32,000 nucleotides of DNA, from NCBI RefSeq assembly GCF_001945605.1, contig NZ_MPKA01000062.1:1-32000 (forward strand). Direction: 5' to 3'. How positions within the stretch are numbered: the first letter of the stretch is position 1; each line of letters opens with the position of its first letter. The stretch is from Dubosiella newyorkensis (lineage in GTDB: Bacteria; Bacillota_I; Bacilli_A; Erysipelotrichales; Erysipelotrichaceae). The notes under the pieces were generated by a model. That model saw only the letters and a list, made by a program, of their open reading frames with translations, was not told the origin of the DNA and searched no databases. Made by a program: the position numbers and the translations under genes. This document shows, piece by piece, positions 6,590-31,094 of this stretch.

Positions 6590-6617
6590 ATTTTAGCACT
6601 TTATTTCTTTGAGTAAA
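6590..6617 (-). promoter_or_regulatory. Candidate sigma-A promoter overlapping the MuF stop, reading into the structured leader
   Basis: - strand: TTTACT (6617-6612), 16 nt, TAAAAT (6595-6590). Confidence 0.35.
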
Positions 6618-9012
6618 GTATTTCGGCTTTCTTGATAATTTTAGATGTTTTTCTTTCCGACATCATCCAACATGTGATTATTGAGCTAAGAAAATCTGGG
6701 TGATCCTCATCATTATTTAACCTTAACACAGCAAGGATATATTTACCTTCTGATTCAAAACGCTTTAATATCTTTCCTGTATTTTCTTTTTTATCTGCAA
6801 GAATATAATCTGGATCTTTTAAAGCCGTACATAGCTCACCCATAACCAACTTGTAAGCTTCAGGGTGCCTTTCAAGAATATGCCTTTTTTGTTCTCCGGT
6901 TATGATTATTTTATCTTCTCTAATTTCTCCCTTGATATTCAATAGAGCTTGCTTATTAAATTCAATAAAATAACTGGGCAATCTAACCTCTTTTATCCAT
7001 TGAAGAAGGGTTAATTGATGTAGATCAACCTCTTTTTTCCACTTCTCCCTTTCACTATTCCAATCCCTCCAACTCAGCCCGTGCTTGTCATATGTCTCGG
7101 TCCACTCGTCGAATAGTTTGACCTCTTCGTCGCTCACACCGAAATCCGTGCGCTCGATATAAGCAGAAGTAGAACATCTGCAATTACTAGTTACAAAACC
7201 GTTAGCAATGTATAATGTAGATAAACAGGAGGCATCATATACATGACCAGAAAAAGGCACAACATTGATGAAATCAACGTTATCGAACTTTACAAAAGTG
7301 GGAAAACAGTCAACGAAATTTCTAATATTTACGGCGTTCATAGATACACGATCGAAAGGATTATGAAAGCCAATGGAGTCAAATTGCCTGGAGTCCGTAT
7401 CGATCTCGACAGTACTAAGATCGCCGACCTTTATGTTTCCGGAATGAGCGAAAAAGCCATTTCCGAGCAATTCGGAGTAAGTCGCCCCACGATTCGTAGA
7501 CGACTCCTTGATTCTGGTGTCATAATCAGAACTCAAACGCAGGCTAACCAACTCATGATGAGTAAGAGAACCCGAGAAGAGAATATCCGCAACTCTGAGG
7601 CCGCCCATAATGCCATCAGAGGTTATACCTATTCCAGTGAGGAACTTTGACAACGAGCTTTCAAAAGGCAAAAATCTTTCGTTCAATTTGATAGTGCCTA
7701 CGAGGCTTCTATCGCTGATGAACTTAGAAAAAGAGGAATTAAGTTTATCCCTCAATTCGCCATTGATAAATACAATGTCGATTTCGCTATCGGGGATTAC
7801 ATCGCCCTTGAGGTCTACGGAGGTCACTGGCATTCGAAAGGTCGTCATGCTATTCGATTTAACGATCGAAGCAAAAAGATTTTCGATAGTGGTAGAGCTA
7901 TCGTGATTTGCTGGTTCACCAATAACATCACTACCGACATTACCGCAATAACGGACTACCTTATCTCCCTTGATAAGGTTCTTCGCTTTGACCCAGCCTC
8001 TCGCTGTAAGCATTATGTGATTAGGTGTGACGGTAAGTCGAGCTCCATCGGCCGTTCTAATCTCGACTACATCTCCTGAATATTCGCTTTTCATAATCGC
8101 CTCTGCATCAGGGGCGATTATTTGCGTGTCAGGCAAAACACAATTCGGATGCATAGGCGGAGCGTTCACGCCTGGCTGCATATCCTTCATGTCAAAATGT
8201 TTCCCGTTGATCGCTAAACAATGCGGGCAAGCCGTCCCTAGGGAATGGAACGTATATTGATCGAATCCGTTTTCTTCAAACGATCGGCGCTGCGCTTCCG
8301 TTTGAACCCGTGCCATTTCTGTGATCATCAAACGGTTCGCGTCGTATACGCTCGATTTTATCTTTTTTCGAAGCGTCCGCGCCAATTCTTTTGGATTGCG
8401 TCCCTGAATGAGTCCGGTCGATAAAAGGTTCCCCAGCTCGTTTCTTAATATATCCTGGTGCTTCCAGATCCGGTCGCTCCAAGTCGCGTTGTGAAAGCTG
8501 GCGTTCACGATCGAATGTGCGTAGCGGGCATTGTCATGGACCGTACGACCTAATATACCGGCTTGCCGTTTGAACGTCTCGATCGTGCGCTTGGTCAGCT
8601 TCTCTTCAAAGAAACGCTGCAGTTCGTCGAAGCCGCCGACCAGATGCATTCCGATGTTGGCTTTCAACAGCTCCAGCCGGTTCACCTTCATCGTGAGATT
8701 GTAAAGTCTCATCTCTTCATTGGCCTGATCGGAGAAATTTTTCTCGGCCACATACTTTTTAGCGAGCTCGGCATACGTTTTTATATCCAGTTTAGAGACT
8801 CTTTTTTTCGCTTCTGCATAGGTGATTCCCTCTTTTGTGGCGTATCGAGTGTAGAAATTGTTGATCTGGATCTCGATTTCATTCATCATCTGTCGGTAGA
8901 TGCGTTCGATCTCTTGGCTGTATGTCTTCTCTTCTTGGATATTGTGTTTCCGCTGCTCTTCTTCCCGCTCGCGCCAATAGTCGGCGCTACTTTTCGATTC
9001 CGGCTTCGCCAT
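6601..9012 (-). CDS. MuF / SPP1 gp7-family minor head protein, interrupted by an intein and fused to a C-terminal PBECR-type toxin-like nuclease domain
   Basis: N-terminal part: ...ITEMARVQTEAQRRSFEENGFDQYTFHSLGTACPHCLAINGKHF...APPMHPN|C (MuF domain). C-extein: CRCSTSAY.... C-terminus: ...IIITGEQKRHILERHPEAYKLV...DPDYIL...YILAVLRL (PBECR-like). Follows the portal gene. Confidence 0.85.
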   Translation of the reverse strand: MAKPESKSSADYWREREEEQRKHNIQEEKTYSQEIERIYRQMMNEIEIQINNFYTRYATKEGITYAEAKKRVSKLDIKTYAELAKKYVAEKNFSDQANEEMRLYNLTMKVNRLELLKANIGMHLVGGFDELQRFFEEKLTKRTIETFKRQAGILGRTVHDNARYAHSIVNASFHNATWSDRIWKHQDILRNELGNLLSTGLIQGRNPKELARTLRKKIKSSVYDANRLMITEMARVQTEAQRRSFEENGFDQYTFHSLGTACPHCLAINGKHFDMKDMQPGVNAPPMHPNCVLPDTQIIAPDAEAIMKSEYSGDVVEIRTADGARLTVTPNHIMLTARGWVKAKNLIKGDKVVRYCGNVGSDVIGEPANHDSSTTIENLFASIVKSNSMTTFRMPVTSVDLKGDVIPDSEIDIVFINGELRDKLNSSFSKFISDRSLVGTIKLNERFLPFESSLSKFLTGIGITSDGIMGGLRVADILFSGSLTHHELVSLRLSSDYDTRIKESSTNRGATYSELLGNGFFAHSGNIKVGDLSTVEIDTDSRQFDSIGFHNPFDRVSMNAVNIRNFVDCFPTFVKFDNVDFINVVPFSGHVYDASCLSTLYIANGFVTSNCRCSTSAYIERTDFGVSDEEVKLFDEWTETYDKHGLSWRDWNSEREKWKKEVDLHQLTLLQWIKEVRLPSYFIEFNKQALLNIKGEIREDKIIITGEQKRHILERHPEAYKLVMGELCTALKDPDYILADKKENTGKILKRFESEGKYILAVLRLNNDEDHPDFLSSIITCWMMSERKTSKIIKKAEILYSKK
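7243..7650 (+). CDS. Antisense-nested ORF, part 1: double helix-turn-helix DNA-binding module (homing-endonuclease-type targeting domain)
   Basis: AGGAGG at 7227-7232 and TATAAT at 7211-7216. Two repeats: INVIELYKSGKTVNEISNIYGVHRYTIERIMKANGV and KIADLYVSGMSEKAISEQFGVSRPTIRRRLLDSGV. Ends at an in-frame TGA (7648-7650). Confidence 0.7.
   Translation: MTRKRHNIDEINVIELYKSGKTVNEISNIYGVHRYTIERIMKANGVKLPGVRIDLDSTKIADLYVSGMSEKAISEQFGVSRPTIRRRLLDSGVIIRTQTQANQLMMSKRTREENIRNSEAAHNAIRGYTYSSEEL
7651..8079 (+). pseudogene. Antisense-nested ORF, part 2: Vsr/DUF559-like PD-(D/E)xK nuclease segment, same frame as part 1, with no start codon of its own
   Basis: SAYEASIADELRKRGIKFIPQFAIDKYNVDFAIGDYIALEVYGGHWHSKGRHAIRFNDRSKKIFDSGRAIVICWF fits the DUF559/Vsr-like pattern (E..L...G...Q....Y..DF......ALEV.G..WH......D..R...L...G..V). 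Open from the TGA to the stop at 8077-8079. Confidence 0.6.
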
Positions 9013-12849: not shown

Positions 12850-12939
12850 AGTAAAAACAATCTTTTTTATGTTTTTGTTAACGTCATCTATGTTTCATGT
12901 AAATGAAAAAGCCGAAAATCAACAGACTCCCGACTTGAT

Positions 12940-12979
12940 CACGCATCGACACGCATCGACACGCATGTTCACGCATCGA
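12940..12979. repeat. Four tandem 10-bp repeats (CACGCATCGA x2, CACGCATGTT, CACGCATCGA)
   Basis: Read directly from the sequence. The period is about one helical turn. Intergenic. Confidence 0.9.
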
Positions 12980-13027
12980 ATAGCACTTGGCTTTTCCGGT
13001 GCTCTTTTTACATTTCTTGATGATACT

Positions 13028-13036
13028 ATTATAGCA
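13028..13036 (-). promoter_or_regulatory. Extended -10 element (TGcTATAAT) pointing toward the 10-bp repeats
   Basis: The - strand reads GGTGCTATAATAG just downstream of the DUF2335 terminator. Confidence 0.35.
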
Positions 13037-13068
13037 CCTTGACACGGTTCACTAGTGTACTCTTTCAG

Positions 13069-13103
13069 AAAAAAAATAACCGGAAGTCGATCGACTCCCG
13101 GTT
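13069..13103 (-). terminator. Strong rho-independent terminator after the DUF2335 gene
   Basis: - strand: AACCGGGAGTCGATCGACTTCCGGTT (about 10-12 bp stem, one G-U) followed by ATTTTTTTT. Confidence 0.7.
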
Positions 13104-13587
13104 ACTTATCTCCATCCTTATCGGATCCTTGGTATCTCCCGCTAATAAAAATAAATACCAGCGTCGCCGCCGCGCCGACAAGAGTTGTAAAGCCTTCAAG
13201 AGCGCGCCCCTGCGATAAGAGGAACATCCCCCCGCCCAGCACAATCAGTGCTATTATAAAGCCCATAAACTGACCACGTTTCTTCGTTTTCGCATCTTCT
13301 CGAAGCATATACGTAGCGTTTACCAATCTTGCTTCCTGCTCTTTTTCCGCCATAGCAATTATCCGATCCGCTGCATCGGGGTGGGCCTCATTGTACTTGA
13401 TCAGTTCAGAAGCCGGAGGAAGAGGGCCTTCATATATTTGACTGCTCTCCTCATAGCGTTCTATAACTAAGTTTCGTTGTCGAGGTGAAAGCTTATCAAT
13501 CTCGGCTTCAACCTGCTGAATCTCACTATCCTGCTCAGTCGGCGTAAGCGGTTCATTATCCGTTTTTGTATTGTCTTTCATAATCAT
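13102..13587 (-). CDS. DUF2335-type membrane protein
   Basis: YEGPLPPASELIKYNEAHPDAADRIIAMAEKEQEAR matches the DUF2335 core (..GPLP.P..L..Y....P.AADRII.MAEKEQ..R). Two C-terminal TM helices. Confidence 0.7.
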   Translation of the reverse strand: MIMKDNTKTDNEPLTPTEQDSEIQQVEAEIDKLSPRQRNLVIERYEESSQIYEGPLPPASELIKYNEAHPDAADRIIAMAEKEQEARLVNATYMLREDAKTKKRGQFMGFIIALIVLGGGMFLLSQGRALEGFTTLVGAAATLVFIFISGRYQGSDKDGDK

Positions 13588-17580: not shown

Positions 17581-17599
17581 CCCTGTTTCTAAACTTTAA

Positions 17600-17846
17600 A
17601 AAAGTGTACTTTATAGGATTTATAGAATTTCTATACCCCCTTTATTTCTATAATTCCTATATACCTACTTTTATTACTTTACTGATTAAAGTTTGTTTAC
17701 TTTGTTTACAAAATCACCATTTCCGCTTTAGCTATCGTGTTTTTCCTGTAAACAAAGTTTTTAAGTTTGTTTACGTCCGTTTACGTTTTTAGAAGTTTGT
17801 TTACGCCCCGCTTACTTTATTTTTTTGCTCTAGCGTAAACAAACTT
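17600..17846. repeat. Probable phage replication origin: AT-rich tract plus iterons (A)AGTTTGTTTAC in both orientations
   Basis: Direct copies at 17688-17700, 17701-17709, 17763-17774, 17775-17784 (variant) and 17793-17804. Inverted copies (GTAAACAAAGTTT / GTAAACAAACTT) at 17748-17760 and 17835-17846. Very AT-rich at 17600-17687. Adjacent to the primase gene. Confidence 0.6.
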
Positions 17847-17854
17847 TTTAGCTG

Positions 17855-22807: not shown

Positions 22808-23929
22808 TTATTCTCCTCCTTTGATCATGTCGCTAAAATCTTCGACCGCATCCGAATAGACGGGCCTTTTATCTGTGATTGGAACAAGCACAGGCTTGCC
22901 GCGCGGTTTATCGATATAAACCTCCGCCAATTCTGCGAAACGCTTTTTTCCGCACATCTTTTCAAGGCCGCCAATGCCAAGCAGCTCTTTCGGCTTATAG
23001 AGCTTGTTTTCTTCGTATCCTTCAGCAAGCAGCTTCTGGACGAGACTTTCTTTATCGCTGATCGTACGTCGGCTCGTCCCTTCGACAACTTTCCAGCCTT
23101 CGAATTCTGCTCCTTCCAAAGCTTGTCTTAAAGCTTCGTCCTGAAGTTCTTTGGCCCACGCCTGGATCGGATCGAGCTCATTAAGAAGCAGAGAGATCTC
23201 TTTTTGAGAAAGAAGATGTCGTCTTCGATAGGCTGCGATCTCTTCCATCTGCGCGGCTCTTGCTTTGCATGTCGATCGCGCCTTGCAGAATCGGCAGTGA
23301 GCGCCGGCGCATGCTTCTCCTTCGCCGGTCATTGCTTTTTGAGCGGCTGGAACAACGATCGTTTCAAGCCAGTCAAGAATGGCTGTTTTGGTCGTCTCCC
23401 ACGACGCTACGTTTTGGATCCTAGGCTGGAAGATGTGCAGTGTCACTCGTTCGAAGTCATAGAAGCTTCCGAGCAGATCGATCGCGCCGGCCGCATAAAG
23501 CATCAGCTGAGAGTTTTCTTCCGGATCGACCGGGACGCCTTTGCCATACTTAAAGTCGATCACATCAAGTCCGGCGTCAGACACGATCAAGGCGTCGCCT
23601 GTTCCAAAACCAGACGGAACCCAGCGCGAATAGTCGAGACGCTCTTCGATCAGCAGTTCCGGATTGTTGTGGCTGTTATAGATGCTGACCACATAGTCTT
23701 TGTAGTCGGTCGTGGCCTCATCCATCTCCTTGTCGGAGCACTCGATCTTCTTGCGCCCCTTCGACTTCCACTTCTTCAGCTTCTCTTCACAGATCGAGTG
23801 GGCAAGCGTGCCTTCCTGCGTGTAAATGGTGTCGGTATTCGGGAACGTCGATTCGAGCTTGGCTGAAACTGGACAGTTCAGCCATTTGCTCGATGACGAT
23901 GCCGATAAGAACGCGTGTTGGCTAGGCAT
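22808..23929 (-). CDS. DUF2800-family Cas4/RecB-like PD-(D/E)xK nuclease with an Fe-S cysteine cluster
   Basis: N-terminus HAFLSASSSSKWLNCP. DALIVSD...IDFKYGKG nuclease motifs. C-terminal C...CRFCKARSTC cluster. Confidence 0.75.
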   Translation of the reverse strand: MPSQHAFLSASSSSKWLNCPVSAKLESTFPNTDTIYTQEGTLAHSICEEKLKKWKSKGRKKIECSDKEMDEATTDYKDYVVSIYNSHNNPELLIEERLDYSRWVPSGFGTGDALIVSDAGLDVIDFKYGKGVPVDPEENSQLMLYAAGAIDLLGSFYDFERVTLHIFQPRIQNVASWETTKTAILDWLETIVVPAAQKAMTGEGEACAGAHCRFCKARSTCKARAAQMEEIAAYRRRHLLSQKEISLLLNELDPIQAWAKELQDEALRQALEGAEFEGWKVVEGTSRRTISDKESLVQKLLAEGYEENKLYKPKELLGIGGLEKMCGKKRFAELAEVYIDKPRGKPVLVPITDKRPVYSDAVEDFSDMIKGGE

Positions 23930-24326
23930 GATCAATCAGCTCCATCAGCTCGCCGTACTTCGCAGGGTCGAGTGTCGTTAGATTCTTGGCGCCAAGCTGA
24001 CTCAGCAAAGCCTTGAATCTAGGCCCATCCAGTTTTGACATCGCGGCCGCTCGAACTTCTTCGAGTGTGTAGGCTTTCTCTTCAGTTGGCTTTGGTTCAG
24101 TTTTGGTTTGAGTGTTGGTTTTGGTCACTTCTGGTCGCTTGATCGCCTGCTTGGTTGCGTGCTCGTCTTCGAACGGTCTGTCCAGATCGTCTTTGGTCAG
24201 TTTCTGTTTTTCTAAGGTGAATCCCATCTGATCGGGTTCGATCGTGGCCGATGGGTTGGCTAGGAAGCCCATCAGCTGGGCTTCGATTTCGGCGTAGCTG
24301 TCGCCTGTGATTTCTACTCTTATCAT
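23922..24326 (-). CDS. Hypothetical protein
   Basis: 134-aa ORF, coupled to the downstream gene. T/K/P-rich linker. Confidence 0.55.
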   Translation of the reverse strand: MIRVEITGDSYAEIEAQLMGFLANPSATIEPDQMGFTLEKQKLTKDDLDRPFEDEHATKQAIKRPEVTKTNTQTKTEPKPTEEKAYTLEEVRAAAMSKLDGPRFKALLSQLGAKNLTTLDPAKYGELMELIDHA

Positions 24327-24335
24327 TCTTTCCTC

Positions 24336-24551
24336 CTATATATGTTTTTGTTGCGTTGAAAGTTGCTTACCCTCTGCTATAAGGCTTCTTCTCTTCCACG
24401 GCTCGTCTCGACCGCAGATCAGGTCGCGATGACGTTTCTCGCGTGCTTCTTCTTGTTGTTTAACGTAATGCAAATAGCTAGCGCATTCGCCGTGGCATGT
24501 CGGCGTCCGTTTCGGGCACCGATAACATGGCGCTGTTGCGCCGGGTTTCAC
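24336..24551 (-). CDS. Small Cys-rich (zinc-finger-like) protein
   Basis: CYRCPKRTPTCHGEC... motif. 71 aa. Confidence 0.5.
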   Translation of the reverse strand: MKPGATAPCYRCPKRTPTCHGECASYLHYVKQQEEAREKRHRDLICGRDEPWKRRSLIAEGKQLSTQQKHI

Positions 24552-24844
24552 GGCTTGTCCTTTTCTGCTTTTTCTAAAGGCCCTTTATTGATTGCGGCAC
24601 ATTTTGTCCGCAAAACGGTCATGGCAAAACGAGCGTCTGTAAGTGCTGATTCCCACGATGTCAAATGATCTTCCATATCATCCAAAAGGAACTCAAAGTT
24701 GATGATGCTCATCGGGTCATCCACATGGATCCGACGAGATTCTTTGGTTAAAAGGTCTACGCCTTTTTTCGCCTTTTTTGTGATCTCCTGGCCGAAAAGG
24801 ATGTTCTTTTCGAGCTTCTGGAGATTCGATTTGATTAAGTGCAT
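24548..24844 (-). CDS. Hypothetical protein
   Basis: 98 aa. SD AAGGAGA before the ATG at 24844. Confidence 0.5.
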   Translation of the reverse strand: MHLIKSNLQKLEKNILFGQEITKKAKKGVDLLTKESRRIHVDDPMSIINFEFLLDDMEDHLTSWESALTDARFAMTVLRTKCAAINKGPLEKAEKDKP

Positions 24845-24862
24845 TTATGTCTCCTTGTTAAG

Positions 24863-24957
24863 TTCCGACCCCCTCAAAGAGCTGCCAAGCAAAAGAAAGG
24901 AAAAGCGCTTGTTTGAATTGTGTATAGTATCTTGACAGCTCCGTGACGGAGCCGGAA
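24863..24957 (-). ncRNA. Structured intergenic RNA element, copy 1 (~25-bp irregular helix with a 41-nt apical region)
   Basis: - strand: UUCCGGCUCC/GGGGGUCGGAA, a G-G mismatch, UCA/UGA, a C-U mismatch, then GGAGCUGUCAAG/CUUGGCAGCUCU. The 4 G-U pairs are valid only on the - strand. Confidence 0.5.
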
Positions 24958-24970
24958 TCTATCTTGTTTT

Positions 24971-25147
24971 TTATTTGTTGTTGATCAGTTCTTTAAGGCA
25001 TCTCGCCGCCTCCGAGGCGGCATTCACGAGCTGATCGCGCTCGCTTTTGTAAAGCACATCTGTCTCTTCCAAGCACTGCACGATCGACACGCTCTCCAGG
25101 AGCTCGCCGATGCACCGATGCGCCCATGTTTCAGTTCTTGTGTCCAT
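24971..25147 (-). CDS. 58-aa hypothetical protein
   Basis: MDTRTETWAHRCIGELLESVSIVQCLEETDVLYKSERDQLVNAASEAARCLKELINNK. SD AAGGGAA. Below the ORF-track cut-off. Confidence 0.4.
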   Translation of the reverse strand: MDTRTETWAHRCIGELLESVSIVQCLEETDVLYKSERDQLVNAASEAARCLKELINNK

Positions 25148-25167
25148 TTGGTTCCCTTTCTGTGATG

Positions 25168-25270
25168 CTCCGGTCCCCTCAAGAGCCTGCCGAGATTTGA
25201 AGCTTAAAGCGTTGATTTATAAGGAGATTTACTATGGTCTTTTCACGACAGACTCGTGACGGGACCGGAG
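25168..25270 (-). ncRNA. Structured intergenic RNA element, copy 2 (paralog of 24863-24957)
   Basis: - strand: CUCCGGUCCC/GGGGACCGGAG, a G-G mismatch, UCA/UGA, a C-U mismatch, then GAGUCUGUCG/CGGCAGGCUC. Same architecture as copy 1, with compensatory substitutions. Confidence 0.5.
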
Positions 25271-25330
25271 TTTGTGTTATAATTCAGTGTGTATATTTTT
25301 TCTTGGAGGGCTTTCGCGAGTCCTCCTTTT

Positions 25331-25513
25331 TTAGCTGTTTACGGTCGCATTTTGCTGTCTGCTAGACGGATCATGGACTCTTCCAGATACTTTCCGAAGT
25401 TCCCTTTTCTTTTTCCAGGCTTCGAATTCAGCCTGTACAGTTGGATCAGCGTAGAACTCTGTAAGCTTCTCTTTTGTGATCCCGCGCGCTAGACCTTCTA
25501 TAATTTTTTCCAT
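25331..25513 (-). CDS. Hypothetical small protein
   Basis: ATG at 25513 after GAAAGGAAG. 60 aa. Confidence 0.45.
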   Translation of the reverse strand: MEKIIEGLARGITKEKLTEFYADPTVQAEFEAWKKKRELRKVSGRVHDPSSRQQNATVNS

Positions 25514-25526
25514 TTTGTTCTTCCTT

Positions 25527-25706
25527 TCAATGTGGCGTCTCAAGCATGAAAGTCAGCAGGATCAGAGCTGCGCCGATCACGCTGGTGATGATTTGGATCT
25601 TTCGATGTTCTTTTAGAGCTTCGGTTTGGAGCTCGATCATCGCTTTTTCCTCAAGATGCTTTTGGATGTTCTTGTTGACCCTGGCCATGAACTTGTAGTC
25701 AGTCAT
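25527..25706 (-). CDS. Hypothetical small protein with a C-terminal TM helix
   Basis: ATG at 25706 after AAAGAGGAAAA. ...IQIITSVIGAALILLTFML. Confidence 0.4.
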   Translation of the reverse strand: MTDYKFMARVNKNIQKHLEEKAMIELQTEALKEHRKIQIITSVIGAALILLTFMLETPH

Positions 25707-26058
25707 GAGGTTTTCCTCTTTGGAGAACTTGCTGATAAGCAGCGTCTCCAATTTTTTCAAAGACTGAGTCGATCAGCGACAGCGCTACCCGATATGCTCT
25801 TTCTGCCCCCAAGGCATTCCAATATTCTTCCGACTCGTCTTCCTCTTCGTCTTGCGCATCTAAAACTACAGATAAACGAGCATTCAACTTATCACCAATT
25901 CGAGTCAATTCCGCTAATAGATCGACTCCAAAAGCAGGATCTGCAAGTTCCATATCTCTAAGAGCATGTTCAAAGCCGGCAAAATAAGATTCATTGATAG
26001 ATCCATCTGCCAAAGACCGTGCAGCCATCTGATGTAGCCGTTCAATTTGATTTTTCAT
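25699..26058 (-). CDS. Hypothetical acidic protein
   Basis: ATG at 26058 after GGAGAAAAG. 119 aa. Confidence 0.5.
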   Translation of the reverse strand: MKNQIERLHQMAARSLADGSINESYFAGFEHALRDMELADPAFGVDLLAELTRIGDKLNARLSVVLDAQDEEEDESEEYWNALGAERAYRVALSLIDSVFEKIGDAAYQQVLQRGKPHD

Positions 26059-27389: not shown

Positions 27390-27590
27390 CTAATCCACCC
27401 TGATTACGAAATCATCAGGTTTCTTGTTTAATGCGCTGCAAATGGCTAAGAACTCGTTTACGTCGCATTTTCTTTTTCCTGACAAGATTTTCGAAAGTTT
27501 TTCTTCCGAAATCCCTGCTCTTTTTGCAACGTATTTTTGCTTGATTCCGTTATCATCCAAATATTTCTTCAATTTATCTTTATCGAACAT
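27390..27590 (-). CDS. cro: Cro-like XRE-family HTH repressor
   Basis: 66 aa with the HTH KQKYVAKRAGISEEKLSKILSGKR. Divergent from the CI-like gene. Confidence 0.8.
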   Translation of the reverse strand: MFDKDKLKKYLDDNGIKQKYVAKRAGISEEKLSKILSGKRKCDVNEFLAICSALNKKPDDFVIRVD

Positions 27591-27613
27591 ATATGCCTCC
27601 TTTCTGTGTTGAG

Positions 27614-27677
27614 TTTCTTAACACGCCATTACTATAACGTGTATTTTCTTAACAGTCAAGAAAGAAATGTTAAGAAA
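27614..27677. promoter_or_regulatory. Operator sites of the genetic switch (TTTCTTAACA x2 direct plus one inverted copy)
   Basis: TTTCTTAACA at 27614-27623 and 27645-27654. TGTTAAGAAA at 27668-27677. A variant TTTCTTGTTA at 27687-27696. Confidence 0.55.
27631..27659 (-). promoter_or_regulatory. Early lytic promoter (PR-like) for cro
   Basis: - strand: TTGACT (27659-54), 17 nt, TATAGT (27636-31). Confidence 0.6.
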
Positions 27678-27690
27678 TTCAACATTTTTC

Positions 27691-27719
27691 TTGTTATAGG
27701 GTATCTTTCGGGATAAAAT
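27691..27719 (+). promoter_or_regulatory. Repressor-gene promoter (PRM-like)
   Basis: TTGTTA (27691-96), 17 nt, TAAAAT (27714-19), then SD AAAGGAGAG and the ATG at 27744. Confidence 0.55.
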
Positions 27720-27743
27720 ACAAGCAAGAAAGGAGAGCTAAAG

Positions 27744-28469
27744 ATGAACAAATACTTAATTGAGCGCATTAAAGAAGCCCGAAAAGATTGCGGAATGAGT
27801 CAAAAAGAAGTTGCTGACATCCTTGGAATTAATCGTTCTACGATAGCAAGTTATGAAACCGGAAATTCAGAACCTGATATAGATACGTATATCAAACTTT
27901 GTAAAATCTATAACGCCAACTATGTTGATATCCTTAACAAAGCCTATGAATTACAGGAGATTGCCCAATTTACCCCAACTATCGAAGAAGAATACATTAT
28001 CGAAAAGATTCGCGATTTAAACGAAGAAGACAAAGTAATGATAGTTTCTTTAATTGAGCGTTTGACTACTAAATCCTCTTTAAAAGTCGAAGACGTGCCG
28101 ATTCGCTATGTAACGCTGCCTGCTTACGGATATGCCCCGTCGGCTGGTACCGGAAACTATATGCCTGATGACATTCCGGCAAGCACGATCCAGGTTCCGG
28201 AGTCTCCATCGGCCGAAAAAGCTGATTTCGTTGTTAGGGTCAGTGGCCATTCGATGGAACCGAAATTCATGGATGGTGATCTCGTCTTGGTTAAAAAAAC
28301 TGAAGTGCTTGATCCTGGCAAGATCGGTATATTTTCTGTGAATGGCGAAGCGCTGATCAAAGAGTACTTTCCTGATCGGCTGCATTCGCTCAATGCAAGA
28401 TACAAAGACATCGACCTTAATGACGGCGATACAGTGCGCTGCCTAGGCGAAGTAATCGGGAAATTATAA
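27744..28469 (+). CDS. cI: CI-like repressor: N-terminal XRE HTH plus C-terminal S24 (LexA-like) autopeptidase
   Basis: HTH MSQKEVADILGINRSTIASYETG. S24 motifs VSGHSMEP and GEALIKEY. Confidence 0.9.
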   Translation: MNKYLIERIKEARKDCGMSQKEVADILGINRSTIASYETGNSEPDIDTYIKLCKIYNANYVDILNKAYELQEIAQFTPTIEEEYIIEKIRDLNEEDKVMIVSLIERLTTKSSLKVEDVPIRYVTLPAYGYAPSAGTGNYMPDDIPASTIQVPESPSAEKADFVVRVSGHSMEPKFMDGDLVLVKKTEVLDPGKIGIFSVNGEALIKEYFPDRLHSLNARYKDIDLNDGDTVRCLGEVIGKL

Positions 28470-28746: not shown

Positions 28747-30192
28747 ATGAAAAATAACGTCGAAAGAAGAGAAATCAGTTTAAGTTCGCTGGTTATATTT
28801 GCAGAAAACCCGAGACACGAACCTGCGGAAAATGAAGAAAAGGCTATGGAACTCTTATGGATAATAGTTGGAAGTCAAAAAATGGTAAATCTAGCTAAAG
28901 ATATTGCTGAAAATGGATTAAATCCCAACGAACTGCCTATTCTAGTTCCTCTCGCCAGCAAAAAAGGAAAATTCGAAGTTTATGACGGGAATAGAAGGTT
29001 GACAGCATTAAGAATACTGAGTGATCCTGACAAATACGACTTTATCTCCACAAGCCAGAAAAGCAAGCTCAAGAGCATCGCGCAAACAAACTTGAGTCGG
29101 ATCCCGAAAAAAGTCTTTGCTTGCATTACCAGTCAAGAGCACGCTCTGTCTCTTATAAAAAAGACCCATACTGGTGTGGATAGTGGTCGAGGCCGTACGC
29201 CCTGGGGTGCAGAAGAAATTCGAAGGTTTGAATTAAAATATGGCACCAGGAAAGATACAACCGATTATATTCTTGAAAAAGCGAACGAATACTTTGAAAT
29301 CGATAATCTAACCAAACGACTTAGTATCACCTCGATTCGAAGAATCTTTTTTGCATCGGTCAAAAATGCTTTAGGATTCGACGAAAAGAATCCTGCATCT
29401 TTCACAAAAGATAGGATTTGTCTCGCGATAAAACTCATAGAAAAAGCAGCAGAGGAGGACAATAGCGGAAATAAAGTATCGAGATGGCATGCAGCGGATG
29501 CTGAGAAAATGTTAATGCCTATTATAAAAGAAGAAATAATAAGCCGCCCGCTCTCTCCTATACCTGAGCCGATCGCGCAAAATTCTGGTAAAACATCTAC
29601 AAATAATGCCACAAAAGGCAATAAAGACAAAAGCGATAAAAAAGAAGGCAATTCGAACAAGTCGAAAGAAGATAAACCAGAACCTCCCAAAGTTCCTTAC
29701 TTTATGGAAGGCTTGGATTTAAGCGGCTTATCTAAAAACGAACAAGGGAATCACGGGATTATTTCAATTGGAAATGAATTATTGAAGATCTCTAAAAACA
29801 AAGCAGTCGATAATTATCCATTGGCATCAGCAATGCTTTTGAGATCGCTTGTCGAAGCGGTATTGATCCGTCACCTAAAAACAAAAACCGACGAAGAAGG
29901 AAAACCTCATTGGAGTCATCTAGCTAATGAGACGAATGGCTATCCATCTTTATCTAAAATCATCAAATACTATGGTAAGTGTCATCAAGGCCTCTTAGAT
30001 CACACTCACAAAAGAACATTTGATCAATGCTTAGGAGATCAAAGCAAGGTAATCGAACCAATTAATTTATTGATCCACCACCCTGAAAAATTCCGTGAGC
30101 CCGAATATAAAATTAAAGATTGGCCAAAACTTGGTCTACTTGATTTGTTAAACTACCTGATTAAAGAAATTTCTGGCCAAAATGCTATTTAG
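28747..30192 (+). CDS. ParB/Srx-fold N-terminal domain protein with a K/S/N-rich linker and a helical, possibly HEPN-like, C-terminal domain
   Basis: N-terminus ISLSSLVIFAENPRHEP...KFEVYDGNRRLTALRIL (ParB NPR and DG.RR motifs). Linker NSGKTSTNNATKGNKDKSDKKEGNSNKSKEDKPEPP. C-terminus ...ASAMLLRSLVEAVLIRHL...IEPINLLIHHPE. Confidence 0.65.
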   Translation: MKNNVERREISLSSLVIFAENPRHEPAENEEKAMELLWIIVGSQKMVNLAKDIAENGLNPNELPILVPLASKKGKFEVYDGNRRLTALRILSDPDKYDFISTSQKSKLKSIAQTNLSRIPKKVFACITSQEHALSLIKKTHTGVDSGRGRTPWGAEEIRRFELKYGTRKDTTDYILEKANEYFEIDNLTKRLSITSIRRIFFASVKNALGFDEKNPASFTKDRICLAIKLIEKAAEEDNSGNKVSRWHAADAEKMLMPIIKEEIISRPLSPIPEPIAQNSGKTSTNNATKGNKDKSDKKEGNSNKSKEDKPEPPKVPYFMEGLDLSGLSKNEQGNHGIISIGNELLKISKNKAVDNYPLASAMLLRSLVEAVLIRHLKTKTDEEGKPHWSHLANETNGYPSLSKIIKYYGKCHQGLLDHTHKRTFDQCLGDQSKVIEPINLLIHHPEKFREPEYKIKDWPKLGLLDLLNYLIKEISGQNAI

Positions 30193-30224
30193 CGTTTATC
30201 CTTATCACGAGGAGGGTGAAAAAA

Positions 30225-31094
30225 ATGAATAATTCACCACTAAGATATCCTGGAGGAAAACATAAGCTGTTCCGTTTTGTCCAGCAGCTCATCAAAGAAA
30301 ACGGCTGCATAACATATATTGAACCTTTTTGTGGGGGTGCTGCAATAGCTTTAGAACTATTGAGAACCAACACTGTACAAAAAATCATAATGAACGATTT
30401 GGACCGCGGCATCTATCTAATGTGGAAAATGATTCTGGAAAGACCTGAAGAATTAATTGAAAAAATGGACAAAACAGAAATCACGTATGCAGAGTGGGAA
30501 CACCAGAAATGTGTTCGAGCTAATTTGGAAGAGCATTCCGATCTTGATATAGCGTTCTCTACCCTTTTCCTTAATAGGACTAATCGCTCAGGAATCATCG
30601 ATAAAGCAGGCCCTATTGGGGGTAAAAAACAGGATGGGGCTTATAAGATCGGCTGTCGATTCAATAAGGAAAAACTGGCCAAAAAAATCCGTTTAATCCA
30701 TTCAATGAGGAATAGTATTAGTTTGTATAATTTGGATGCCCGTGATTTCTTAGAAAAAGTCGTTGCTAAAGAAAAAAACGCATTTACGTTTTTCGATCCA
30801 CCCTATTTCCATAAAGGGCAGGAACTCTATTCAGATTTTTTAGGGTCTGAAGACCACCAGCAGCTTGCCACGCTCATAGTTGATCATCTTAGGCATGAAA
30901 AATGGATTGTTACATATGATAATGTCCAGGAGATCAAGGATTACTATTCACCAGTCAATGGGTTCGAGTACAGCCTTCAATATACGCTGCAAGAGAAGAG
31001 AAAAGCCACAGAATTGATATTTTTTTCGCCTGATGTAAGAATTCCTAAGTTGTCAAAATATATACATTTCATAGGTAAAACTCCCTTTCGATAG
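30225..31094 (+). CDS. D12-class (Dam-family) N6-adenine DNA methyltransferase
   Basis: LRYPGGKHKL, EPFCGGAAIAL (SAM binding), NDLD, FFDPPY (catalytic DPPY). The ATG at 30225 lies 8 nt after GGAGGG. Confidence 0.85.
   Translation: MNNSPLRYPGGKHKLFRFVQQLIKENGCITYIEPFCGGAAIALELLRTNTVQKIIMNDLDRGIYLMWKMILERPEELIEKMDKTEITYAEWEHQKCVRANLEEHSDLDIAFSTLFLNRTNRSGIIDKAGPIGGKKQDGAYKIGCRFNKEKLAKKIRLIHSMRNSISLYNLDARDFLEKVVAKEKNAFTFFDPPYFHKGQELYSDFLGSEDHQQLATLIVDHLRHEKWIVTYDNVQEIKDYYSPVNGFEYSLQYTLQEKRKATELIFFSPDVRIPKLSKYIHFIGKTPFR

Follow-up and report, generated by a model that had tools for sequence, protein, structure and literature searches.

Two paralogous hairpins between small early genes of a temperate Bacillota phage, possible substrates of the host RNase III

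Two intergenic elements, E1 and E2, were studied on the - strand of a 32,000 nt stretch of DNA (contig NZ_MPKA01000062.1, positions 1 to 32,000; hereafter the window), which is a temperate siphovirus-type phage or prophage. The pair was found to be real RNA hairpins favouring the mRNA strand. E1 and E2 match no catalogued RNA family, being absent from Rfam, and are private to one rare temperate-phage lineage, in which at most two copies occur. Most likely they serve as ordinary signals of mRNA processing or stability, of a class already known between phage cistrons. By analogy with known substrates, processing of the hairpins by the host RNase III is the favoured, still tentative, reading. The pair had been pointed out in an earlier, sequence-only reading of the window. 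RNA folding gave the following parts.

24863-24957, - strand: E1, a 95-nt hairpin, scored at 109 bits by the covariance model R1
24957-24948 paired with 24872-24863, - strand: lower helix of E1
24947-24943 (G UCA C) opposite 24877-24873 (U UGA G), - strand: central irregular zone of E1
24942-24931 paired with 24889-24878, - strand: upper helix of E1
24930-24890, - strand: apical loop of E1, 41 nt
25168-25270, - strand: E2, a 103-nt hairpin
25270-25261 paired with 25177-25168, - strand: lower helix of E2
25260-25256 opposite 25182-25178, - strand: central zone of E2
25255-25246 paired with 25192-25183, - strand: upper helix of E2
25245-25193, - strand: apical region of E2, about 50-53 nt

The minimum-energy RNA fold of E1 consisted of a helix of 9-10 bp, a G opposite G, the 3 bp UCA/UGA, a C opposite U and a helix of 12 bp closed by the 41-nt loop. 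E2 was folded into 10 bp, the same central zone, 10 bp with two additional weak pairs and a loop of about 50 nt. This common fold on the - strand is the one described in the sequence-only reading. The apical regions, earlier put at 41-50 nt, measured 41 nt in E1 and about 50-53 nt in E2, and contained the loop strings named there, AAGCGCUU in E1 and AACGCUUUAAGCUU in E2. Both apical regions are A/U-rich, and both loops carry CU-rich runs. With 10 + 3 + 9-12 bp and two single mismatches, the irregular helix covers the length of about 20 bp or longer that corresponds to two turns.

The folding energy on the - strand was -40.1 kcal/mol for E1 (z = -6.65) and -44.9 kcal/mol for E2 (z = -7.03). Dinucleotide shuffles of the elements gave about -22 kcal/mol, and none of 200 shuffles folded as well as either element. 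Among 6380 windows of 110 nt, taken from both strands of the 32 kb and corrected for GC, E2 ranked first and E1 third. Equal support for the + strand would have spoken against an RNA fold of the mRNA sense; the + strand folds were found to be weaker for both E1 (-24.5 kcal/mol, z = -1.9) and E2 (-38.6 kcal/mol, z = -4.3). DNA energy parameters gave the same strand asymmetry, with the - strand better for both elements. When the entire 526-nt region was folded, both hairpins survived and both Shine-Dalgarno (SD) sequences were mostly unpaired.

Pairing was compared in an alignment of E1, E2 and three orthologous variants, with 22 pairs in common. Standard pairs occupied 99.1% of the cells over the 22 aligned pairs, against 39-56% in slid-register controls. 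E1 and E2 differ on both sides at five pairs (1-104, 7-98, 17-88, 18-87 and 19-86) and on one side, as G-U versus G-C or U-G versus C-G, at three (6-99, 8-97 and 16-89), and not one of the 22 pairs is broken between them. These counts, which bear out the paired substitutions between paralogues claimed earlier, represent a single paralogue comparison, all orthologues found being 94-99% identical. The two mismatches and the 3-bp core UCA/UGA were identical in E1 and E2, as had also been noted. The six G-U pairs of the sequence-only reading were recovered on the - (mRNA-sense) strand, four in E1 and two in E2, and all six correspond to A-C on the + strand.

The - strand is the coding strand of all surrounding genes. 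The genes of this stretch are tightly packed, overlapping or abutting, and the only two long gaps are those holding E1 and E2. Two small open reading frames (ORFs) adjoin the elements.

24971-25147, - strand: 58-aa ORF with E2 upstream and E1 downstream, SD GAAAGGGA at 25160-25153
24548-24844, - strand: 98-aa ORF directly downstream of E1, SD AAGGAGA at 24856-24850

E2 ends 20 nt before the ATG of the 58-aa ORF. E1 starts 13 nt past the stop codon of that ORF, and 18 nt separate its end from the ATG of the 98-aa ORF. The distance from hairpin end to SD is 5-8 nt in both, in accordance with the earlier placement of the elements directly upstream of the SD of small early genes. Gene map and domain annotation likewise agreed with a location between early-operon cistrons of a temperate phage of the Bacillota. 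A-rich unstructured RNA directly precedes both hairpins. No U-tract follows E1 or E2, and a sigma-70-type scan, extended by inspection of the loops by eye, found no sense-strand promoter in or beside them. The elements are therefore neither terminators nor promoters. Base pairing between the loops and the SDs was rejected as a function, the duplexes of each loop with its own SD being no better than those of shuffled loops (757/2000 and 1215/2000); cross-pairings between loops and SDs were marginal (about 3%, uncorrected for multiple tests). The preference for the mRNA strand, the position by the SD, the lack of terminator and promoter features, the two-turn helix and the conserved centre together support the assignment of E1 and E2 as cis-acting RNA elements of the early transcript.

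RNase III was chosen as the candidate enzyme because the geometry of the hairpins fits classic substrates and because a helix of this length is hard to shield from the enzyme. The early R sites of T7 are paralogous intercistronic hairpins with a central internal loop. The shape would suit an RNase III site of the T7 R-site kind, as proposed in the sequence-only reading, or of the SP82 kind, both elements having an irregular helix of about 25 bp with a conserved central distortion. In the proposed mechanism an early polycistronic transcript of the - strand would come from the cro side, cover the small genes and continue into the replication module. Within it, each hairpin would form part of the 5' leader of the next small gene, E2 for the 58-aa and E1 for the 98-aa ORF, and its helix of about 25 bp would present two helical turns to the host RNase III. 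The central distortion (G-G, UCA/UGA, C-U) would lie at the catalytic centre of the enzyme and direct the cut. Cleavage would free the downstream cistron from the upstream RNA and generate a new 5' terminus some 30 nt ahead of the ATG, and the stability and translation of the downstream message could be set independently of its neighbours. In Bacillus, RNase III targets have been described as stable stem-loops that contain small internal bulges and are cleaved on one side or on both (PMC4838370). One of these targets is intergenic, and the paper cites the SP82 early mRNA sites of Panganiban & Whiteley 1983.

The same surroundings would suit hairpins that remain intact and act as stability elements, with RNase Y cutting in the A-rich strand upstream and the hairpin serving the downstream message as a 5'-terminal block to RNase J1 or the upstream message as a 3' block. 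In the Bacillota, to which the host belongs, 5' stem-loops that act as stabilisers and RNase Y cleavage guided by hairpins are both established (cggR-gapA, saePQRS). The A-rich unstructured RNA directly before both hairpins, the co-inheritance of hairpin and downstream gene described below, and the 5-8 nt that leave the SD free are all consistent with this explanation. A helix of 25 bp, however, far exceeds what a stabiliser needs and would from general knowledge be expected to attract RNase III anyway, and a pure stability role leaves the identical mismatches in both paralogues unexplained. A stability role without RNase III is regarded as unlikely, although the least unlikely of the alternatives.

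The constancy of the centre could instead reflect a site for a phage or host protein, either a translational operator or regulator of the two small genes or a put-like antitermination factor. A central 5-nt zone that is identical on both helix strands while the helices covary is the typical signature of a recognition motif, and the two copies bracket the 58-aa gene, whose function is unknown. Against this, no RNA-binding domain was found in the neighbouring proteins. Predicted structures of the 58-aa and 98-aa proteins are plain alpha-hairpins (an alpha-helical hairpin and a two-helix hairpin, respectively), neither protein had a significant Pfam or PHROG match, and a fold search of the PDB, made with the 58-aa model only, gave nothing at E <= 0.001. 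The sole Pfam match among the neighbouring proteins was a weak one to a CII-like family (E = 0.009, below cutoff). Among 5.8 billion proteins the 58-aa, 98-aa and 71-aa proteins fall into one or two protein clusters each, the 58-aa and 98-aa ORFs into two each. The relatives L109-L111 keep E2 and a 57-aa gene without E1, which means that the pair is not obligatory. The antitermination variant, raised in the sequence-only reading, was judged unlikely: the elements are single hairpins separated by about 2.3 kb from the early promoter region on the cro side, and no strong - strand terminator is met until about 13,100 and 12,930, some 12 kb downstream. Comparison with the put-type RNA of HK022, which has two stem-loops just past an early promoter and allows terminators beyond to be read through, gave no correspondence, each element being one long hairpin. 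Overall, a protein site is considered rather improbable.

Several points weigh against RNase III processing. The covariation comes from one paralogue pair, and an inverted DNA repeat would also give two-sided changes. Single-stranded DNA tolerates G-T pairs. A natural variant, E1 of L112, has an A-C mismatch in the lower helix. The apical loop, at 41-53 nt, far exceeds that of T7 or SP82 sites. Recognition by a protein would explain the conserved mismatches equally well, as would protection from RNase III cleavage. Finally, confinement of the element to one rare lineage means that no statistical test of selection is possible.

The distribution of the elements was studied with model R1, which was used on relatives, on loci of phages carrying a DUF2800 gene and on the window. 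Both copies were recovered in every close relative. Nothing was found in 80 DUF2800-phage loci, and the window contained no third copy even with the filters off. A corrected 21-base exact pattern was searched in the viral genomes of IMG/VR, in 185,579 species-representative genomes and in the JGI metagenomes, and two half-patterns were searched in viral contigs. These scans returned this phage lineage only, together with chance matches in unrelated, mostly GC-rich coding DNA, the off-lineage matches being judged as chance by reading of the sequence, by model R1 or by folding. All 16 matches in the 185,579 genomes were of the chance kind, and the JGI metagenomes held one true locus, belonging to the same phage. 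BLAST of the element region against 50,697 phage records gave no match.

Within the lineage the stems of E2 were identical in all five orthologous variants, one of which has a 3-nt deletion in the loop. The 35-nt spacer directly upstream of E2 differs at 5-9 positions among the variants. Of two changes in E1 variants, that of the L002 type (U-G to U-A) improves a pair, and that of L112 (G-C to A-C) disrupts one. In comparison with L002, the 58-aa ORF shows three synonymous changes and one C-terminal change. Neither E1 nor the 98-aa gene occurs in L109-L111, which retain E2 and the 57-aa gene; there the coding sequences of the 57-aa gene and the following gene share ATGA, and nothing of the element remains. 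E1 and the 98-aa gene are gained or lost as one block. In L112 the 60-aa gene upstream of E2 is absent, and everything from a + strand terminator hairpin onward is kept. The breakpoints of these insertions and deletions do not coincide with repeats, and those of the L109 deletion lie inside coding sequence. The small-gene region 24548-25543 is mosaic when compared with L109, L112, L085 and L152. The module downstream of it in relatives contains either DUF2800/DUF2815/PolA or YqaJ/RecT/RusA/SSB. Because of the patterns of co-loss in relatives, the hairpins are seen as leaders tied to the downstream gene in an ordinary mosaic region.

Presence and absence as a block, and the order element-ORF-element-ORF, might also be expected of elements that act as DNA, either as single-stranded hairpins or inverted repeats in replication or recombination, or as junctions in cassette shuffling of small early genes, resembling integron attC or the T4 PeSL (promoter-early stem-loop) elements. 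As Weinberg et al. point out (PMC5737381), structured motifs that recur in successive intergenic regions can represent single-stranded DNA of the attC type. Homology of L112 to the window sets in at the E2 unit's border, the replication or recombination module follows closely downstream of the elements, and the - strand folds better with DNA parameters too. The L109 deletion, however, left no junction element and has its breakpoints in coding sequence, unlike site-specific excision of a cassette. No R/L-box consensus was visible, no integrase domain was found in the scanned ORFs, no - strand promoter of the kind present in PeSL elements was seen, no relative has more than two copies, and the preferred strand is the mRNA sense. 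A role as DNA is accordingly held to be improbable. As individual candidates, the integron attC site was rejected for want of an R''/L''-L'/R' box (GTTRRRY core) in the arms and of an integrase domain in the scanned ORFs, and the loss of E1 and the 98-aa gene in L109 left no site, unlike the excision of an attC cassette. The T4-type PeSL cassette was rejected because the scan for sigma-70-like promoters gave none on the sense strand within or next to either element.

A repeat that is non-functional or selfish, either a miniature inverted-repeat transposable element (MITE) or a duplicated palindrome in decay, would account for the element length of about 100 nt and the inverted termini of about 27 nt. 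Correia-type MITEs have a similar size and inverted termini and are also cut by RNase III. The hexamer AACAAG flanks E1 as a possible target-site duplication, but 25-40% of shuffles do likewise, and flanking direct repeats in general were no better than shuffles. Outside the lineage, neither the 185,579 genomes nor the JGI metagenomes nor IMG/VR yielded a copy, the window lacked a third one, all six wobble pairs are on one strand, and E2 is more conserved than its flank. A dispersed MITE is ruled out because the element is private to the lineage, with at most two copies, and MITE identity was rejected on the lack of dispersed copies and on the flanking repeats; a non-functional repeat of any kind is highly improbable.

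Comparison with known RNAs was made by an Rfam/Infernal scan, which had been proposed together with the sequence-only reading and matched no family. Rfam 15 gave no match at gathering score in the whole window. At E <= 10, the region 24300-25800 gave only chance miRNA-like, snoRNA and sRNA71 matches, which reflect a generic long hairpin. The DUF2800 motif, mentioned in the sequence-only reading, does exist: it is Rfam RF02960 (gathering threshold 60.2 bits) and scored 118-146 bits in the related phages L013, L040 and L052, which served as positive controls. In these it lies on the gene strand about 1.1 kb upstream of the DUF2800 gene, at 1994-2151 in L013 and at 2709-2868 in L040 and L052. The suggestion that E1 and E2 might be this DUF2800/DUF2815 motif was not sustained, given the lack of an Rfam match in the window, the different fold and the occurrence of the elements without a DUF2800 gene. 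Identity with RF02960 was rejected, since the region 24300-25800 stayed below threshold and did not match it at E <= 10 either. In L085-L090, L112, L152 and L153 the elements accompany YqaJ/RecT/RusA modules and no DUF2800 gene, and an E-like element was present in 0 of the 80 DUF2800-phage loci. A CCGUCA/UGAUGG stem in the DUF2800 RNA of L013 recalls the central zone; this stem is variable in the family consensus and was treated as a coincidence. Analogous long hairpins were also looked for in DUF2800 phages, where the top outliers were ordinary intrinsic terminators with U-tracts. The main text of Weinberg et al. 2017 contains no discussion of the DUF2800 motif (PMC5737381).

A promoter and terminator scan pointed to a further unit beside E2.

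25256-25332, + strand: antisense unit with promoter-like and terminator sequences

The unit lies between the stop codon of the upstream gene and E2, antisense to the early operon. A -35-like GTGACG (25256-25261) is inside the 5' arm of E2 and is the complement of the conserved CGUCAC. An extended -10, TGTTATAAT, follows at 25275-25283, and an intrinsic terminator, with a stem at 25305-25326 and a run of six T at 25327-25332, is located about 20 nt beyond the -10. The terminator hairpin folds better on the + strand, its G-U pairs being A-C on the - strand, and three base changes in the hairpin of L112 all keep the + strand pairing. TGnTATAAT and the hairpin are kept in L002, L109 and L112 although the spacer has diverged and the upstream gene can differ, and TGnTATAAT is present in all variants. 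From these sequence features a transcript of about 43 nt is predicted, lying antisense to the spacer that precedes E2. In a more speculative interpretation, E1 and E2 would be portable 5'-leader modules moving along with small early genes, and E2 with the antisense unit would be a two-strand RNA switch or the target of a dedicated phage factor. This has little probability. Were it true, the sense hairpin and the short antisense RNA would act as a gate for expression passing from the genes near the immunity region to the replication/recombination module, a two-strand switch previously undescribed; alternatively, a dedicated phage factor would read the invariant G-G/UCA:UGA/C-U motif.

The early operon begins next to the immunity region, and genes of both are given here.

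27744-28469, + strand: CI-like repressor with helix-turn-helix (HTH) and S24 peptidase domains
27390-27590, - strand: Cro-like HTH gene, first of the - strand operon, facing the CI-like repressor
22808-23935, - strand operon: DUF2800 gene, after the small ORFs

A Bro-N antirepressor is found with the Cro-like gene at the start of the - strand operon, followed by about ten small ORFs of unknown function. After the DUF2800 gene the order is DUF2815, DNA polymerase A, VapE primase-helicase and SNF2 helicase. Terminase, portal and other late genes come after two strong terminators near 13,000. These are intrinsic terminators on the - strand (12909-13107) with stems of 15 bp and 12 bp and T-runs, and the pair marks the end of the early/replication operon, ahead of the packaging genes. 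Nested inverted repeats on TGTTAAGAAA/TTTCTTAACA occur at 27597-27735 between the divergent cro-like and cI-like genes and are probably the immunity operators. Directly downstream of the VapE primase-helicase gene there is a very AT-rich gap (17590-17850, GC 0.23-0.31) with several inverted repeats, including a perfect 14-bp pair, which is a candidate origin or promoter region. Elsewhere in the window, an 803-aa Mu-F-like head protein (6601-9012, - strand) contains an intein splicing domain and a C-terminal PBECR2 (Barnase/EndoU/colicin E5-D/RelE-like) nuclease domain. A 481-aa ORF beside the repressor (28747-30192, + strand) had no Pfam match and is followed by a D12-class N6-adenine DNA methyltransferase (30216-31094). 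Near-identical prophages, L152 and L153, are present in two Dubosiella newyorkensis assemblies (GCA_949455875.1 and GCA_949530325.1), and because of these the probable host is Dubosiella newyorkensis (Erysipelotrichaceae, Bacillota). Both prophages adjoin a tyrosine integrase gene.

If E1 and E2 are processing sites, they would show how a prophage of gut Erysipelotrichaceae tunes individual small early genes after transcription. The block of hairpin, SD and small gene could find use as an expression insulator that is compact and self-contained. Confinement to one rare lineage limits the impact, and there is no hint of a new mechanism.

Among known systems, the DUF2800 RNA resembles E1 and E2 in being structured, on the gene-sense strand, about 1 kb upstream of DUF2800 and in a gap of the early operon of Bacillota phages, and differs from them in its 158-nt two-domain fold with conserved loops. 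The PeSL elements of T4, reportedly described by Arbiol et al. in 2010 as promoter-early stem-loops flanking small ORFs, are likewise repeated intergenic stem-loops before small early ORFs of variable presence among relatives. The helices of E1 and E2 are much longer and are without a promoter, and the indel breakpoints are not at repeats. Correia elements, other MITEs and attC sites share with E1 and E2 the nature of inverted-repeat elements of about 100 nt in intergenic DNA, and attC sites in addition the alternation of element and ORF and the strand-specific hairpin. Unlike MITEs and attC sites, E1 and E2 are not dispersed, have no target-site duplications and no box consensus, and no integrase was found. 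For the antisense unit, the nearest counterparts are lambda OOP and P22 sar, short antisense transcripts with their own promoter and terminator in early operons. They agree with the unit in being short antisense RNAs with their own promoter and intrinsic terminator in the early operon of a temperate phage; here the RNA would be only about 43 nt, over an intergenic spacer next to E2, and is predicted from the sequence.

The T7 R0.3-R1.3 and SP82 sites, to which RNase III processing of E1 and E2 would correspond, are paralogous hairpins between cistrons of an early polycistronic transcript; E1 and E2 are likewise paralogous and lie between co-oriented early genes that would share such a transcript. 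Common to all are a two-turn irregular helix, a central conserved distortion and the proximity of the ribosome-binding site downstream. The sequences are unrelated, and the loop is a few nt in T7 and SP82 as compared to 41-53 nt here. E1 and E2 are known from sequence, and their host is a gut bacterium of the Erysipelotrichaceae. If they are processing sites, they would provide a phage parallel to the intercistronic processing of T7 and SP82 in a group of bacteria with a little-studied RNA biology.

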